32,160 nucleotides of DNA from Promethearchaeota archaeon (GTDB lineage: Archaea; Asgardarchaeota; Odinarchaeia; Odinarchaeales; JBHLKK01), in the NCBI GenBank assembly GCA_048939565.1, contig JBHLPJ010000002.1, positions 1 through 32,160 of the forward strand, in the 5' to 3' direction. Numbering within the stretch: position 1 is the first letter of the stretch; each line of letters begins with the position of its first letter. This document shows positions 7,581 to 18,922 of the stretch, piece after piece. The translations under genes and the position numbers were made by a program. Below the pieces are notes generated by a model. That model had not been told where the DNA came from and ran no database searches. It saw only the letters and a program-made list of their open reading frames with translations.

Positions 7581-7802
7581 ATGGCTACAAAGTTAACGAA
7601 TGCTCGTGTCGAGAGAATAATGAGGGAGACAGGGAAGAAGGAAGGAATTCCTCGTGTTTCAGCGGATGCAGTTGTTTCGATGAATGATGCTGCGACCAAA
7701 TTCATTCGTAGCATCTGTGCAGTTGCAGCTGGTCTGGCAAAGAAGGATAGACGTAAGACCGTCTTACCGCGAGACATCGATCAAGCTGTAAAACAAGCAT
7801 AA
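7581..7802 (+). CDS. Archaeal histone (HMf / CBF-NF-Y histone-fold family)
   Basis: 73 aa with a histone-fold pattern: L..ARVERIMRE.G...RVSADAV......A..FI......A...A....RKTVLPRDIDQAVK. The RKT...DI..AV signature matches HMfB-type histones. Confidence 0.85.
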   Translation: MATKLTNARVERIMRETGKKEGIPRVSADAVVSMNDAATKFIRSICAVAAGLAKKDRRKTVLPRDIDQAVKQA

Positions 7803-7819: not shown

Positions 7820-7840
7820 TTTTTTTGGGGTACTTTTTTT
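7820..7840 (+). terminator. Two T7 tracts immediately downstream of the histone gene (archaeal oligo-T terminator)
   Basis: T7 at 7820-7826 and T7 at 7834-7840, within 40 nt of the stop at 7802. Confidence 0.5.
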
Positions 7841-7922: not shown

Positions 7923-8040
7923 TTGTGACATCTTTTTATGATAATCACAATCATATCTTGATTGATATGCGGAATCCTTAAATGCCATTTTGCACAATTA
8001 TTTATCAGGAGCGCAAAAGAATACTGCGGGAGATTGCTAA

Positions 8041-8601
8041 ATGCTACTAAACACTGAGCTGTTCAAGGTAATTGTCACTGGAGAGGGTGGTGTTGGAAAA
8101 ACCTGCCTTGTTCAGCGTTATACTAGCGGTAACTTTTATCACACAAGGACGACCATCGGAGTAGGATTTGCCACAGCTGATGTTAATCTCAATGGAAGAG
8201 ACATAAAACTCCAGATTTGGGACTTCGGTGGTGAAGAACGTTTTAGAAGACTTCTTCCCTCTTTCTGCAAAGGAGCAAGTGGAGCATTAGTTCTATTTGA
8301 CTTGACAAGATTTCCTACTTTTCTTCATCTCAACGAATGGTTGGATCTCATAAGAGATAACACCAACAATATACCGCTGGTCCTCGTGGGATCAAAGGCC
8401 GATCTTACGAACATGAGAGTTGTTGGCAGAGAAGAGATCGCCGACCTGATGAATAAATACAATATCGAACACTATTACGAAGTCTCATCGAAAGATGGAA
8501 TCAACACAGAGGTGGTTTTTACTCGAATTGCTAAACTAATAGTTAACTCATTTGAGACCAGCAACACGAATAATGAACACGGGATAATAAGCATACAATA
8601 G
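8041..8601 (+). CDS. Small GTPase, Rab/Ras-like
   Basis: G1 GEGGVGKT, switch-I region TIGVGF (Rab-type IGVDF), G3 WDFGGEERF, G4 GSKAD, G5 SSK. 186 aa with no C-terminal Cys prenylation motif. Confidence 0.9.
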   Translation: MLLNTELFKVIVTGEGGVGKTCLVQRYTSGNFYHTRTTIGVGFATADVNLNGRDIKLQIWDFGGEERFRRLLPSFCKGASGALVLFDLTRFPTFLHLNEWLDLIRDNTNNIPLVLVGSKADLTNMRVVGREEIADLMNKYNIEHYYEVSSKDGINTEVVFTRIAKLIVNSFETSNTNNEHGIISIQ

Positions 8602-8611
8602 GAGGTATAAG

Positions 8612-9598
8612 TTGTTGAGCGTTACTGATCAAAGCTTCTTGGAGACCAAGCAGCCTGTTATATGTGATATCTGCGGTGAGAAGTTTAATATTAAAATTGA
8701 AAAAGAATATCTTAACGATGTCAAGCGTTTTCCGTTCTCTTACACGTTTGTACATGGAGCACCACCACATGCAGTTGTAGTATATCTTGATAAGGATCTG
8801 AATGTTAGAGGAACTGAGACATCTGATCTGACAAGCATAAAAAGCGGTGAACTAAATACTCCCGCTGTAGATATTACGCCTGATACTCGTCCTATTCTTT
8901 CAAAAAGGGACATCGGAAAGTTGGAAATGGACGGCGATACTGTTTTTATACTTCGAGAGATTGACGGTGAGCTTACAGTTAAGGAAATCGCTGAGAAAAC
9001 CAAAATGGACATAGACAAGGTATGCCAGAAAGTCCAGTATTTAGTTGACTCTGGCGTGCTAATGCCGCTGTTACCTATTGACCTCTGTAATGTGGATTAC
9101 CATCGGATTTACGAGCTCATACCGCCATATAATACAAACAATGTAACCATGACTGCAGGTGCCCAGAGAAGTTCTGCAACCTGCACAATTCTCAGCAACC
9201 TTGACAAGGACTACACTGTTCTGGAAATCGCTCGAGGCCTTGAAAAGGCTGGCTTTGATAAATCTCCCAAAGACGTCCTTGAGACTTTGGAATACTTCGA
9301 GGCTAGGGATGTGGTTCGAGTAAAAGGCCTGACTAAGATTGATATACCTGAGGAATGGAACGATCCTATATTCAATCAAGTACCAAGATTTGCAGACGGT
9401 ATAGAAGAAGAAAGCATACTCAAGAAGGTACCAATTCCAGACAAAACACACTATTTCATTATCAAGAATATTGGAAGAAGGAGTATACTCGATACCACAT
9501 TAGGCTTAATAGGACTTGGCATAGAGACAAATCCTAGAAGGGTACTAGAAATCATAAGGAAGTATCAAAAGCAAGGCTTGGTATATGCCACATTCTAG
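8612..9598 (+). CDS. Hypothetical protein: N-terminal C-x2-C-x26-H-x4-H domain followed by three winged-helix-like repeats
   Basis: TTG start 11 nt after the GTPase stop, preceded by GGAGGT. N-terminal segment CDICGEKF...YTFVHGAPPHAVVVYLDKDLNVRG. Three helix-rich segments of about 55 aa each end in a beta-hairpin-like motif: ...LVDSGVLMPL, ...EARDVVRVKG and ...QKQGLVYATF. No family recognised. Confidence 0.7.
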   Translation: MLSVTDQSFLETKQPVICDICGEKFNIKIEKEYLNDVKRFPFSYTFVHGAPPHAVVVYLDKDLNVRGTETSDLTSIKSGELNTPAVDITPDTRPILSKRDIGKLEMDGDTVFILREIDGELTVKEIAEKTKMDIDKVCQKVQYLVDSGVLMPLLPIDLCNVDYHRIYELIPPYNTNNVTMTAGAQRSSATCTILSNLDKDYTVLEIARGLEKAGFDKSPKDVLETLEYFEARDVVRVKGLTKIDIPEEWNDPIFNQVPRFADGIEEESILKKVPIPDKTHYFIIKNIGRRSILDTTLGLIGLGIETNPRRVLEIIRKYQKQGLVYATF

Positions 9599-9717
9599 GC
9601 ATAAACCATCTCATTCCTTTTTCTACTTTCTTTGTTCAACAATATTTAATAACAAATGGCACCATAGTCTACCCTGTCAAGATTAAACATTATGCCATAA
9701 GAGAGGAGGCAGAAATA

Positions 9718-9990
9718 GTGACTAAGTCCGAGAGTATAAGATCCAGGTGCAAGTTGTGTGACATCATCATTGATATTCCTGTTCCCAAAGATTTCGATGC
9801 CAGCGAAGGTGGCGTTGCACCCATAGTCTATGTACATGGCAATCCTCCTCACACAATAATCGCATATGTGGATGTGAATCTATCGGTCAGAAGCAGTTTC
9901 GTTGTTAGAACCACCGATCCCAAAAAGGCATTAACCGAGCTGAGAAAAAAAGCACTCAAGAGAATGGTAAAACGTGTAAAATCGCTCTGA
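9718..9990 (+). CDS. Hypothetical small protein: stand-alone paralog of the C-x2-C...H-x4-H domain, with a basic C-terminal helix
   Basis: GTG start preceded by GAGGAGG. CKLCDIIIDIP...PIVYVHGNPPHTIIAYVDVNLSVRS aligns residue-for-residue with the N-terminus of the 8612-9598 product. Confidence 0.65.
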   Translation: MTKSESIRSRCKLCDIIIDIPVPKDFDASEGGVAPIVYVHGNPPHTIIAYVDVNLSVRSSFVVRTTDPKKALTELRKKALKRMVKRVKSL

Positions 9991-10045: not shown

Positions 10046-11011
10046 CTACTTCTCGCCGCATCGCTCCATGATTAACTCCCAGTTTTTATCAACATGCGCT
10101 TGAATCTGTTTGATAATATCGTCGCGTCTTTCCGGTCGGAATAGATGTCTGAATCGGCCTTGAATCTTTAGAAACTCTTCAACAGGTCTCTTTTTTTCGG
10201 GCTTTCTAACTATGATTTTGCTCGGTGTAGATAGTTTGTAGACAGCCTTTCCGTTCTCCAAGGCTGCCTCCCACAGCGGGAAGAAACAAGTTTCAACTGC
10301 TACTCTGGCAACTTTTACTGATAAGGCCGGATCATGTCGCCACCCTCTCTGACATGAAGCAAATACGTGCATAAATGCTGGACCTTGCACATCATAAGCA
10401 CTCTGGGCCTTTTGCATCAAATCTCTCCAATAGGCTGGTGATGCAGTAGCAACATAAGGTATTTCATGTTCTACTGCAATCCTTGCAATGGGTTTCTTCC
10501 ACTCAACCTTTCCTGGGATGACCTTTCCTGCGGGGCTTGTTGTTGTCCAAGCATATCGAGACGTACCGCCGCTCCTCTGGATACCAGTATTCATGTATGC
10601 TTCATTATCAAGCAGCACATATACAAAATCATGCCCTCGTTCTAGAGCACCAGAAAGTGCTTGAATTCCAATATCTATTGTACCGCCATCTCCAGCTAAA
10701 GCAAGAACATTGATGTGTCTCTTCATTTTTCCACGTCTTTTAAAACTTTTTAGCGTAGCCTCTATACCGCTTGCTGTGGCAGCTGCATTCTCAAATGCGT
10801 TATGAATCCATGGTATCTTCCAAGAAGTATAAGGATAGATGCTAGTTGAGACTTCGAGACAGCCTGTAGCGCTAACGGCTATAATGGGATCCTTACTGGC
10901 TTTCAGTAGAAGTCTTGTTGCTGTTCCTTCTCCACATCCGGGACACAATCTGTGACCTCCAGAAAGCAATTCATCAGGGGATTTTGCTATATCTTTGGCC
11001 TTCAACGACAT
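10046..11011 (-). CDS. porB: Pyruvate/2-oxoacid:ferredoxin oxidoreductase beta subunit (TPP-binding)
   Basis: LCPGCGE N-terminal Cys motif and the GDGG..DIG TPP-binding motif. The size and position as last gene of the four-subunit operon fit. Substrate specificity (pyruvate versus another 2-oxoacid) cannot be determined by eye. Confidence 0.88.
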   Translation of the reverse strand: MSLKAKDIAKSPDELLSGGHRLCPGCGEGTATRLLLKASKDPIIAVSATGCLEVSTSIYPYTSWKIPWIHNAFENAAATASGIEATLKSFKRRGKMKRHINVLALAGDGGTIDIGIQALSGALERGHDFVYVLLDNEAYMNTGIQRSGGTSRYAWTTTSPAGKVIPGKVEWKKPIARIAVEHEIPYVATASPAYWRDLMQKAQSAYDVQGPAFMHVFASCQRGWRHDPALSVKVARVAVETCFFPLWEAALENGKAVYKLSTPSKIIVRKPEKKRPVEEFLKIQGRFRHLFRPERRDDIIKQIQAHVDKNWELIMERCGEK

Positions 11012-15968: not shown

Positions 15969-16814
15969 TTATTCTAAGATTATCCTCTCCAAGAGTTCCA
16001 AAAGACTATTTCGTTGAGCTTTCTCTATTGCTACCAAGCCGTAGGTCTTGATACCGAGTACCTCTTCAATTTCTTCAGGAGGGAGCGCGTTCCCGCGATC
16101 CTGTTTGTTCGCAACTCCTATGATTTTTGCATATGGAGCCTTGCTCTTAACCAGCGGGAGGATTTTTTCTTTTGTCAACTTAATATTATCCAGTGTAGAG
16201 TCACAGACTATGGCAATGACTTCTGTTCCTTTAACAAGTATGTCCCAGGCAGCCATGAACTGCTCCTGACCTGCAAAGTCAAATATCATGACATAGTAGA
16301 CTCCTACAGTAACTGTAAGCGGTTCTCTATCGGCGAAGATTGTGGGAACATATTTCATTGGAATTTCTTCTTTTCTCAAGAGGCGAAGTATGGTCGTCTT
16401 CCCGACGCCGCCAAATCCAACCAAAGATAGCTTCACCGGAAGCTTGCTTATGATATCAATCACTTCGTTGTTAAATCCATCGCTTAGCTGGGAGCCGTTC
16501 TCAATCTGATTCTCGACCCCAAACTTCTTAATAAATGAGGTTGTTATTTGCAGCAAAATATCCTGAACTTCTCGTTCTGAATTTGTTCTATCGCTTAGTA
16601 CAGCGAATATGTTGTCGTTTGACTTGAGATAGGAGAAACGAAAACGAACAATGTTTGTGTGTTCGATATTGCCCATTTCCATTCTCTCGGAGGCACCCAA
16701 AATTGTAGGCAGTATTGCGTCCACTGAGATCTCTTTCGATCTTGTGAATGATTTGTGGAAAACCTTACCTCCGACTTTATCTAGTATTAGTACCTCTCGT
16801 ATCAATTGCATCAC
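15969..16814 (-). CDS. Two-domain protein: N-terminal longin/roadblock-like alpha-beta domain fused to an Arf/SR-beta-like small GTPase domain
   Basis: The C-terminal half carries G1 GFGGVGKTT, switch-I T (VPTIF), G3 DFAGQEQF and G4 NKQD (Arf/Sar/SR-beta-type). The N-terminal ~125 aa reads as beta-beta-alpha-beta-beta-alpha (IREVLILDKVGGKVFHKSF ... FRFSYLKSNDNIFAVLSD ... VQDILLQITTSFIKKFG), resembling sigma-adaptin/longin domains. Confidence 0.8.
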   Translation of the reverse strand: MMQLIREVLILDKVGGKVFHKSFTRSKEISVDAILPTILGASERMEMGNIEHTNIVRFRFSYLKSNDNIFAVLSDRTNSEREVQDILLQITTSFIKKFGVENQIENGSQLSDGFNNEVIDIISKLPVKLSLVGFGGVGKTTILRLLRKEEIPMKYVPTIFADREPLTVTVGVYYVMIFDFAGQEQFMAAWDILVKGTEVIAIVCDSTLDNIKLTKEKILPLVKSKAPYAKIIGVANKQDRGNALPPEEIEEVLGIKTYGLVAIEKAQRNSLLELLERIILE

Positions 16815-17083: not shown

Positions 17084-18922
17084 TTGCCCAAAACTGCAAA
17101 ATATATGTTTAAGATAATCACTGTCGGAGATGGAATGGTTGGCAAGACCAGTCTTATCCTACGATTCACTGAAAATACCTTTAGGGAGACCTATAAAAAG
17201 ACCATAGGGGCCGATTTCGCTATTAAGAATGTTGATATTGACGGGATTATAGCTAAACTCCAAATTTGGGATTTAGGCGGTCAGGATACCTTTAAGGATC
17301 TACGCAAGATATTCTATCCTGGAGCACGCGGAGCCGTATACGTTTTCGATGTTACTAACCGACCAACCTTCGAAAATATCAGACACTGGTTTAAGGATAT
17401 AGATTCAGTAGTCGGCGATGTTCCCGGACTATTGGTTGGCAATAAGATAGATCTAGCCAGAGAAGTAAGCTATGAGGAAGGGAAAGAATTAGCAGATGAG
17501 CTAGGTATGGACTATCTCGAGACGAGTGCTAAAACTGGAGAAAAGGTAGTAGATGTTTTTAAGATCATGGCGCGAGTAACAGTCGGCGAGAAAGCCGAAG
17601 AAATTCCTACTGGGGTTCCTTCGGCAATATCTCCAAAAATCCCCGGAATCTCTACAGATACTTCAATTGCCTTGGGTCCGGAAGCTGAACTGGAATCCGA
17701 GATCCCTGCAACACCTGCTGACCTGCTTCCAGCTAAACCAGCAATACTTCCTGACGTTGTTATGGATGTTTATGAGTGGATCGAATCACACAGAGACGAT
17801 TTCGTAGATTTATTGAAACGTCTAATAGGTGCTGATACAACCAATCCTCCTGGACACGAGTTCAGAGCAGCCAGAATAATACTGGAAGAATTACTAAAGG
17901 ATAATATCAGATTCAGGGTTTATGAAAGCGAAAAGGATAGAACAAATGTTGTCAGCTGGTCCGGCAAAACTGAGAGTCCTTCTGTTATGCTGGTCTGCCA
18001 TCACGATGTTGCACCGCAAGTTGAGGGGTGGAAGCATCCGCCGCTTGATGCTCTTGAGAAAGATAGCAGGATATATGGGTTAGGAGCTTGCTGCAGCAAA
18101 GGTCCCCTTGTTTCTGCTCTAATGGCCCTTAGAGCGATTCATGTCCTTAATGTAGAACTTAAAGGACAAGCAATGGTCGTGGCGGCCTCCGATGGACTTG
18201 GAGATGGATCAATTGGATTAAAGCACCTCATAGAAGAGGTAGGACTCGTTCCAAATCATGCCATTGTAGCCAGCCCTACAAACTGCAAAACAATAAGAAC
18301 CGTAGAACTAGAGACATTAGCTTTCAGACTTACCAGCAGAGGAAGAGTGTTTGAACCCTCACTTAAGGACATCAATGCTGCCGAGAAACTCGTCAAGGTG
18401 TTAGCAGGATTCAATGATTCTAATGGAAGCAAATATCCGACGCTCGCCAAATGCTCGATTAACATAAGGGAGATCAGAGGAATGCCTGGTGTTGGCGGCA
18501 TTCCTGAGTGGGCAGAGGCAACTCTAGATATTCGTCATCTATTCAAGGAGAACAACGAAAAGATACTTGACGAGGTTCGAAAATTGATTGATAATACCAA
18601 GATATTGGATTCCGATGTTGACGTGTCCATCGAGCAATTACCCGAACCTCCAAAAATCGCCTCTTCAGTCGATGCTCCTGTCGTAATGGCGGTTCGAGAT
18701 GGTTTATATAATACTGCCAATCAAGAACCCTCTTTCGCCGAAACCAAAGAGAATGTCTTGGCGAAAATCTTGGTTCAAAGTAAAATACCTGTGTGCATAT
18801 TTGGCCCAGGTAATGAAGAGAAGTGCAACAGTCCGAACGAGTATATCGAGATTGATGATATGATCGAGGGTGCTAAGGTTTTTGCTGCATCGATAATTAC
18901 TTTGCTAGGGATTAAAGACTGA
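17084..18922 (+). CDS. Rab-like small GTPase fused through a Pro/Ala-rich linker to an M20 (ArgE/DapE/CPG2-type) metallopeptidase-like domain with degenerate active site
   Basis: GTPase domain (aa 1-168): GDGMVGKTS, TIGADFAIK, WDLGGQD, GNKIDL, ETSAK. Linker: aa ~169-225. M20 domain (aa ~226-612): N-terminal LLKRLIG..T.NPPG, VCHHDVAP, W.HPP, IYGLGACCSKG, FGPGNEEKCNSPNEYIEIDD. TTG start at 17084, with ATG 17105 as an alternative. Confidence 0.85.
   Translation: MPKTAKYMFKIITVGDGMVGKTSLILRFTENTFRETYKKTIGADFAIKNVDIDGIIAKLQIWDLGGQDTFKDLRKIFYPGARGAVYVFDVTNRPTFENIRHWFKDIDSVVGDVPGLLVGNKIDLAREVSYEEGKELADELGMDYLETSAKTGEKVVDVFKIMARVTVGEKAEEIPTGVPSAISPKIPGISTDTSIALGPEAELESEIPATPADLLPAKPAILPDVVMDVYEWIESHRDDFVDLLKRLIGADTTNPPGHEFRAARIILEELLKDNIRFRVYESEKDRTNVVSWSGKTESPSVMLVCHHDVAPQVEGWKHPPLDALEKDSRIYGLGACCSKGPLVSALMALRAIHVLNVELKGQAMVVAASDGLGDGSIGLKHLIEEVGLVPNHAIVASPTNCKTIRTVELETLAFRLTSRGRVFEPSLKDINAAEKLVKVLAGFNDSNGSKYPTLAKCSINIREIRGMPGVGGIPEWAEATLDIRHLFKENNEKILDEVRKLIDNTKILDSDVDVSIEQLPEPPKIASSVDAPVVMAVRDGLYNTANQEPSFAETKENVLAKILVQSKIPVCIFGPGNEEKCNSPNEYIEIDDMIEGAKVFAASIITLLGIKD

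Follow-up and report, generated by a model that had tools for sequence, protein, structure and literature searches.

A Rab-like GTPase gene and two CCHH-domain proteins form a candidate NPRL2/3-like switch module in an Asgard archaeon

The genomes of Asgard archaea contain genes for dozens of eukaryote-like small GTPases and for many longin, roadblock and TRAPP-like proteins. In MK-D1 the GTPase genes generally do not lie in operons with such regulators, and GTPase-regulator pairs cannot as a rule be read from the layout of the genome (Tran et al. 2024, PMC10933270). The described regulators closest to the proteins considered here are NPRL2 and NPRL3, in each of which a linker joins a longin N-lobe to a C-lobe and which heterodimerise through both lobes, with Arg78 on the longin loop of NPRL2 serving as the arginine finger for RagA (PMC8534245, PMC9646525). 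Thor- and Lokiarchaeota are reported to encode longin proteins termed 'NPRL2-like' (bioRxiv 10.1101/2020.10.19.343400). Here we analyse a 32,160-nt stretch of Promethearchaeota archaeon DNA (contig JBHLPJ010000002.1; hereafter the window, meaning the whole stretch) containing a forward-strand unit of three genes that encode a Rab-like GTPase, a 328-aa protein and a 90-aa protein, the latter two sharing a domain with a C-x2-C and H-x4-H motif, here called CCHH. We regard it as an even call whether this unit is a GTPase switch with a two-subunit, NPRL2/3-like partner in which a zinc β-domain stands in the place of the longin or roadblock domain.

Domain make-up and fold of the two CCHH proteins

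The 328-aa protein is encoded at 8612-9598 (+) from a TTG start and the 90-aa protein at 9718-9990 (+) from a GTG start; a check of the open reading frames (ORFs) of the window recovered both, as well as the GTPase gene, where a first-pass annotation had placed them. Translation of the large gene gives the motif C18-x2-C21-x26-H48-x4-H53, which bears out the CCHH domain described in that annotation for this protein, with the reservation that the second His is not invariant family-wide. The motif lies in a β-domain at aa 15-75 (8654-8836, +; family hidden Markov model (HMM) 5e-28), of which C18, C21, H48 and H53 are the candidate metal ligands. An AlphaFold2 (AF2) model of the protein, built from a 20-sequence alignment (predicted local distance difference test (pLDDT) 84.8, predicted template-modelling score (pTM) 0.65), consists of this N-terminal β-domain, a disordered linker at 74-84 and three helix-helix-helix-wing units at about 105-170, 188-240 and 276-325. 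Two further residues of the β-domain, D60 and R66, are invariant or nearly so in the family and are located at the β4-β5 turn of the model.

The linker was assigned to aa 76-104 (8837-8923, +) and is modelled with low confidence, with pLDDT <50 at residues 74-84. Winged helix 1 (wH1; aa 105-170, 8924-9121, +) is strongly acidic, with an isoelectric point (pI) of 4.4, and carries the motif 'IDG..T..EIA', while winged helix 2 (wH2; aa 185-242, 9164-9337, +) carries 'NLDKDYTVLEI' and is kept in the Roadblock-fused homologues described below. Winged helix 3 (wH3; aa 276-328, 9437-9598 including the stop codon, +) is basic, with a pI of 10.1. The three units, proposed as winged-helix repeats at the first reading of the sequence, are indeed repeats of one another: BLASTP aligns wH2 with wH3 at 5e-5 and wH1 with wH2 at 0.013.

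The small protein had been described as a CCHH domain followed by a basic helix, and this was confirmed. Residues 8-66 form a free-standing CCHH domain with C11, C14, H40, H45, D52 and R58 at the conserved positions (family HMM 7.6e-20), which resembles the N-terminal domain of the 328-aa protein (BLASTP 4e-8, 33% over 52 aa), and residues 68-89 form a basic helix with a pI of 11.2 (both within 9718-9990, +). The AF2 model (pLDDT 90.6) shows a five-stranded β-meander and a single C-terminal helix. Orthologues of the small protein are 81-90% identical.

Comparison of the 328-aa model with PDB folds using Foldseek returned GATOR1/SEACIT/SEAC chains for all of the top 11 matches (E 1.1e-5 to 3.3e-3, probability ≥0.96). 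From their lengths and entries these chains appear to be NPRL2 and NPRL3 (Npr2, Npr3), and a profile search with the winged-helix module names NPRL2 for the same PDB entries. Besides being its best whole-protein fold match, NPRL2 and NPRL3 share with the 328-aa protein the succession of N-terminal platform domain, linker and winged-helix C-lobe, and paralogues of the window protein bear a true Roadblock/LC7 N-domain. By analogy with NPRL2 and NPRL3, a paralogous two-subunit pair that acts with a small GTPase, the two CCHH proteins may do likewise. Unlike in NPRL2 and NPRL3, the N-domain of the 328-aa protein is a zinc-type β-domain with no longin or roadblock match (Foldseek best E=0.7), the small subunit has no C-lobe, there is no DEPDC5-like third subunit, and the GTPase is Rab-like rather than of the Rag/Gtr type. 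The catalytic Arg of the known pair sits on an N-lobe loop; the near-invariant R66 at the β-turn of the zinc domain would be no more than its putative counterpart.

The CCHH family and its association with GTPase genes

Word-index searches with the two proteins had returned close relatives only and a profile of the domain contributed few more, whereas an exhaustive phmmer search returned 83 proteins, the majority of them alike only over residues 15-80. A local HMM locates the domain in 83 of 91 sequences (81 database proteins and the 2 window proteins), and two proteins, P0030 and P0045, carry two tandem copies; family members are all named 'hypothetical protein' in the databases. We also turned the motif into a degenerate DNA pattern, which was scanned over one genome per species (185,579 species). 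The scan gave 63 loci, 46 of which truly encode the domain and are all from Asgard archaea (Thor-, Loki/Prometh-, Hod-, Odin- and Wukong-archaeota), the remaining 17 being bacterial chance matches without the domain. Judged by these sequences, CCHH is a widespread family that is confined to Asgard genomes in the searches made.

Within the family both Cys, the first His and the Asp (D60) are invariant, G49 next to the first His and the Arg (R66) are near-invariant, and most members also have the second His. Both window proteins fit the resulting signature, C-x2-C … [VI]HG-x-P-x-H … Y-x-D-x4-[VI]R on a five-stranded β-meander. In a secondary-structure map of the models, C-x2-C and H-x4-H come to lie at the tips of two adjacent β-hairpins, an arrangement that suggests zinc binding; the opposite end of the sheet holds the Asp/Arg pair. 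As in zinc ribbons, the metal would be held by two β-hairpin knuckles, one with C-x2-C and the other with H-x4-H; unlike in zinc ribbons, the second knuckle is His-based and not invariant, and the meander has five strands and a conserved Asp/Arg turn. Searches of Pfam and NCBIfam gave zero matches for the domain, a profile search of PDB sequences gave nothing beyond the C-x2-C knuckles of zinc ribbons (RpoP, LysW, eL42; E≥0.05), and Foldseek found no significant neighbour among PDB folds. The possibility that CCHH is a cryptic longin or roadblock domain was rejected on present evidence (hhalign against Roadblock, probability 0.5%; Foldseek as above).

CCHH occurs alone in proteins of 80-115 aa, with one wH1-type winged helix (~150 aa), with TPR repeats, with V4R and with further regions of 150-700 aa at the C-terminal side. 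CCHH, linker and wH1, which make up the N-terminal half of the 328-aa protein, align with the ~150-aa family. The fusion to V4R, a TRAPPC3/Bet3-like domain (Pfam 1.3e-17), was found in 8 genome loci. A proposed longin identity for the C-terminal domain of the ~200-aa CCHH proteins (P0040 group) was not supported by a PDB profile search.

Gene neighbourhoods were counted at 44 independent Asgard genome loci, with the window's own family left out. GTPase genes occupy 11 of the 75 slots adjacent to a CCHH gene as against 2 of 226 other slots (odds ratio 19, Fisher p=6e-6), and in 8 of 36 loci a co-directional GTPase gene lies directly upstream of the CCHH gene, as it does in the window. The GTPase-adjacent CCHH proteins represent about six architectures (six or seven at the least) whose C-termini are unrelated, and since the cases collapse in this way there are fewer independent adjacency events than the raw count. 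Because the domain recurs beside small GTPases across Asgard archaea, the two CCHH proteins of the window probably regulate the GTPase or act as its effectors.

Look-ups of CCHH-wH1 proteins that were picked blind to gene context gave further cases. An operon of the order GTPase, CCHH-wH1, V4R-like was seen twice (gaps of 41 and 27 nt, the third gene overlapping), a Roadblock/LC7 gene paired with CCHH-wH1 was seen once (Pfam Robl_LC7 5.4e-6), and three more CCHH-wH1 loci have weakly Roadblock-like neighbours. The 203-218-aa gene 3' of CCHH-wH1 was considered as a split-off wH2-wH3; this was rejected (BLASTP E=6.4), the product being V4R-like instead. As with MglA-MglB and other Roadblock/LC7 or longin GTPase platforms (Ragulator, Mon1-Ccz1, TRAPP), a small α/β or β platform, here a proposed dimer, is encoded beside a GTPase, and CCHH occurs in operons with Roadblock/LC7 and V4R (Bet3-like) genes and fused to V4R. 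It differs from all of these in its fold and metal site, and it is a family known from sequences alone.

Other arrangements were seen as well. Four Thorarchaeota-type loci (L012, L023, L030, L057) have a conserved multi-pass membrane protein of ~230 aa, a GTPase and a ~280-aa CCHH protein in succession, and in L010, L029, L043 and L061 the membrane protein gene directly precedes the CCHH gene with no GTPase; the ~230-aa Thorarchaeota membrane protein has no Pfam match. At five loci (L020, L036, L037, L038, L044) a stand-alone CCHH gene of 88-108 aa lies directly upstream of a Hel308/Ski2-like helicase gene (~840 aa; Pfam DEAD, Helicase_C, Helicase_dom4_arc). As a separate observation, at two loci (L017 856-4957 and L046 3511-7574) the gene for a CCHH protein of ~740 aa that includes a long coiled-coil-like stretch is paired divergently with the gene for a multidomain protein of 504-546 aa, one of whose domains is a Ras-family GTPase (Pfam Ras 4e-43).

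The GTPase of the window is encoded at 8041-8601 (+; 186 aa). It matches Pfam Ras at 2.2e-40, and its best solved relatives among PDB sequences are Rab2B, Rab43 and Rab11 at ~1e-35. The G1 P-loop is present as GEGGVGKT, DxxG of G3 is kept in the switch II sequence WDFGGE with the catalytic Gln replaced by Glu, and alignment identifies G4 and G5 in the variant forms SKAD and SSK. The C-terminal Cys prenylation motif of eukaryotic Rabs is absent, the protein terminating in ...HGIISIQ without a Cys. The Glu-containing WDFGGE is common to the window GTPase and those of L031, L058, L059 and L054, and the nearest kin of the window GTPase among the fetched loci all have it (L031 5e-52, L059 1e-51, L058 7e-45). 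The L059 (Odin) gene is 2.8 kb from a CCHH gene, and those of L031 (Wukong) and L058 adjoin genes for CCHH proteins whose C-termini are unrelated, an indication that the zinc domain is the part linked to the GTPase. The CCHH-adjacent GTPases of Thorarchaeota carry FD[LF]GGQ in place of WDFGGE.

At the junction between the GTPase gene and the 328-aa gene a GGAGG (8601-8605) overlaps the TAG stop codon (8599-8601) and is followed by the TTG start at 8612 (8601-8614, +). This is the arrangement of stop codon, Shine-Dalgarno (SD) sequence and TTG ORF noticed at first reading, with the gap corrected from 11 to 10 nt; close relatives keep the junction at 13-17 nt. The overlap of stop codon and GGAGG and the nearby start codon suggest that the two genes are translationally coupled.

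The 51% orthologue and the Roadblock-fused paralogues

The closest non-trivial orthologue of the 328-aa protein (P0007, at L073/L074; 51% identity, labelled Odinarchaeia) keeps the large and small CCHH pair, with a 21-nt gap and a small counterpart of 100 aa, and L073 also shares the downstream por-nad synteny of the window, with por again convergent. As far as these sequences tell, the conserved core is the pair of 328-aa and 90-aa proteins. Both the retention of the pair in this orthologue and the existence of tandem-CCHH proteins fit a dimeric working unit.

Upstream of the orthologue the context is different: a ubiquitin gene lies at a distance of 64 nt in L073/L074, and beyond it are genes for E2, EAP30, ESCRT-II (Vps25) and Vps4 (L073 1-7293). 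On this evidence the pair could be an accessory of the ubiquitin/ESCRT system, with winged helices that form an ESCRT-II-like scaffold and a zinc domain that binds ubiquitin in the manner of the Vps36 NZF, and would have been re-wired to a GTPase in the window lineage. Yeast Vps36 carries such zinc fingers (NZF). Tandem winged helices are likewise the building blocks of the ESCRT-II subunits Vps22, Vps25 and Vps36, where they serve as a protein scaffold (PMC11188069), and the winged-helix module has a weak profile match to SNF8/Vps22 (E=0.01). We nevertheless consider an ESCRT role very unlikely: the context is found in one lineage only, with ubiquitin/ESCRT genes in no other CCHH locus seen; the 328-aa protein has three winged helices rather than two, no Pfam EAP30/ESCRT-II match and no ESCRT-II structure among the top 50 fold matches of its model; and Hodarchaeia, which are reported to lack ESCRT (PMC11188069), keep the pair. 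The resemblance to ESCRT-II assemblies raised by the first-pass annotation therefore persists as a single echo, in the L073 cluster and the SNF8 match.

In eight proteins the winged-helix module follows another N-terminal domain, mostly as wH1-wH2 and in P0008 and P0009 also with wH3. Profile comparison with the PDB identifies this domain as Roadblock/LC7 (7f8m 2.8e-6, 7yh1 0.008; P0008-P0010). A Roadblock-wH3 paralogue and a CCHH-wH3 orthologue are encoded in one series of metagenome-assembled genomes (MAGs), so the two forms coexist. The Roadblock-wH3 gene is followed in 5/5 loci (L071, L072, L075, L076, L077) by a gene for a stand-alone 76-aa AsnC_trans_reg domain (RAM, of the amino-acid-binding type), and in the three loci with a visible upstream flank (L075-L077) it is preceded by a metallo-β-lactamase-fold gene. 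A metagenome scan with the winged-helix module alignment added two short Roadblock-type contigs only, with the upstream gene beyond the contig ends. The Roadblock-wH2 homologue P0010 (L078-L080) is encoded 127 nt downstream of porB and co-directionally with porGDAB, so that a gene with the winged-helix module adjoins a por operon in two arrangements, convergent in the window and L073 and co-directional in the case of P0010.

These neighbours bear on whether the 328-aa protein is a transcription regulator whose winged helices bind DNA and whose zinc domain (Roadblock in the paralogues) acts as a sensor, controlling por or other nearby metabolic genes with the GTPase as a mere neighbour. At the sequence level the strongest PDB matches of the winged-helix module profile are indeed Lrp/AsnC helix-turn-helix (HTH) domains at 5e-5 (PH0140 5.4e-5, 7fby 7.9e-5, PH1519 3e-4), followed by PqqD (1e-3), SNF8/Vps22 and NPRL2 residues 188-250 (E=0.096), and wH1 has weak Pfam matches to HTH_47 and MarR_2. 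Ss-LrpB of Sulfolobus is encoded beside porDAB and regulates it. The proximity of por in two arrangements, the RAM gene after Roadblock-wH3 and the basic wH3 would all suit such a regulator. Unlike Lrp/AsnC proteins, however, the 328-aa protein has no RAM domain (Pfam) and combines three winged helices with a zinc domain, and the Lrp-like wH1 is unlikely to bind DNA because it is strongly acidic and the residues of its recognition helix vary among homologues. The gene is also found where por ends at its 3' side, with the por promoter >3 kb away, the whole-protein fold matches of Lrp type are weak (E>0.1) compared with 1e-5 for NPRL2/3, and the family-wide association with GTPase, Roadblock and V4R would be left unexplained. 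DNA binding, which the first-pass annotation had listed as one use of tandem winged helices, thus has the HTH profile in its favour and the character of wH1 against it, and we think the regulator reading distinctly unlikely.

A possible GTPase switch and the layout of the unit

Returning to the reading as a GTPase switch with an NPRL2/3-like partner, several observations weigh against it. The match to NPRL2/3 is at the fold level only (TM score ~0.19, sequence profile E=0.096), although domains in a different orientation would be expected to give a low TM score, and the 328-aa protein has no Pfam NPR2/NPR3 signature at E≤1. Detectable kinship between the zinc domain and longin or roadblock is absent. 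No GTPase gene is found in the 13 kb of the L073 locus, the Roadblock-wH paralogues are not beside GTPases in four contexts, and many CCHH genes have no GTPase neighbour, among them the V4R fusions and the short forms beside the Hel308-like helicase, which means that the domain may be a general adaptor. The window itself contains three GTPase genes in 32 kb, giving a greater chance of local adjacency in this genome.

Some of these points would equally be accounted for if CCHH were a zinc-stabilised module of general use in dimerisation or as an adaptor, with the GTPase adjacency an accident of one lineage whose genome is rich in GTPases and the 328/90 pair functioning elsewhere. The diversity of its partners (V4R, TPR, the Hel308-like helicase neighbour, winged helices), the GTPase-free locus of the 51% orthologue and the density of GTPase genes in the window favour this explanation, which we rate as unlikely on balance: it has to contend with the enrichment of GTPase genes beside CCHH genes, with short co-directional gaps that recur across several unrelated architectures and with the overlap of stop codon and SD sequence in the window, and the non-GTPase partners Roadblock and V4R themselves belong to the GTPase-regulator toolkit. 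The first-pass annotation had proposed a GTP-switched regulator or an effector/scaffold complex. The GTPase enrichment across the family, the Roadblock fusion and the NPRL2/3 fold support a proposal of this kind. The GTPase adjacency is not kept in the L073 orthologue or the Roadblock-wH paralogues, which by the annotation's own yardstick counts in part against it.

If the unit does encode a GTPase switch with a two-subunit partner, we infer that the partners interact physically and have GTPase-activating protein (GAP) or guanine nucleotide exchange factor (GEF) activity. The two zinc β-domains, one from each CCHH protein, would heterodimerise as longin and roadblock domains do and so create a surface that binds the GTPase directly. 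The Asp/Arg turn (D60/R66) could then contact the nucleotide pocket or the switch regions, with a GAP-like or GEF-like catalytic effect or with binding specific to one nucleotide state. In the large partner the flexible ~30-aa linker would join the zinc domain to the winged helices, whose array, passing from acidic to basic, might serve as a protein scaffold towards downstream partners, and the basic helix of the 90-aa protein may tether the complex to a membrane or another anionic surface.

A more specific form of this proposal, which we find rather doubtful, is that CCHH constitutes an Asgard-specific class of GTPase regulator, in which a self-pairing zinc platform replaces longin/roadblock in an NPRL2/3-like heterodimer and places its Asp/Arg turn on the nucleotide pocket. 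If true, it would provide the first GTPase-regulator pairs readable from the genome in the closest archaeal relatives of eukaryotes, since CCHH genes, in contrast to longin and roadblock genes, often share an operon with their GTPase gene, and the links to V4R/TRAPP-like proteins, ubiquitin/ESCRT and por would be hints of a primitive GATOR1-like switch for nutrients or energy. A domain family of GTPase operons would supply concrete, testable GTPase-partner pairs and would be relevant to the question of how older parts were put together into regulators of the GATOR1 and TRAPP types. Even without the GTPase link, CCHH is a confidently modelled and widespread Asgard domain that is absent from Pfam, NCBIfam and the PDB. 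The operon does not correspond to any described system but accords with what is known of GTPase platforms in Asgard archaea; the initial statement that no described system has this composition was half right, in that Asgard NPRL2-like longin proteins have been described (bioRxiv 10.1101/2020.10.19.343400) and the 328-aa protein looks like a variant of their architecture.

The signals around the three genes are consistent with a separate transcription unit. Upstream, two T7 tracts read from the sequence at 7820-7826 and 7834-7840 (+) lie 3' of a histone gene (7581-7802; Pfam CBFD_NFYB_HMF 3.6e-15), and the pair (7820-7840) is likely a terminator parting the unit from the upstream genes. Directly 5' of the GTPase gene is a block (7970-8040, +) in which TTAAAT at 7978-7983 resembles a TATA box and GGGAG at ~8028-8032 an SD sequence; in an alignment of three relatives the block is nearly invariant and the sequence 5' of it diverges, and we suggest that it acts as the promoter. 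Downstream, porB (10046-11011, −) is convergent with the unit, which is thus delimited by the histone-side T7 tracts and porB, as the first-pass annotation had observed. Between the 328-aa and 90-aa genes lies a 119-nt spacer (9599-9717, +; counted as 120 nt at first reading) with a T5 tract at 9618-9622, a TATA-like TATTTAATAA at 9643-9652 and an SD sequence GAGGAGG at 9703-9709. Because the T5 tract and the TATA-like element are conserved in an alignment with relatives, the 90-aa gene may have a promoter of its own in addition to being reached by read-through.

The nearest proteins (92% and 86% identical) were found in MAGs that carry the label Hodarchaeota or Promethearchaeota, both names of Asgard archaea. 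In these close MAGs the order nuo, histone, GTPase, 328-aa gene, 90-aa gene, porBADG, nadCA and aspartate dehydrogenase is kept, and because the whole neighbourhood is syntenic, functional linkage cannot be deduced from it.

The other two GTPase genes of the window are divergent from each other. One (17084-18922, +) encodes a 612-aa protein with an unusual fusion of a Ras GTPase domain (Pfam Ras 5e-51, aa 10-164) to Peptidase_M20 / M20_dimer (aa 303-604), and the other (15969-16814, −) encodes a 281-aa protein in which an N-terminal extension of ~125 aa with a weak Pfam Longin match (0.05) precedes an Arf/Ras-like GTPase domain.

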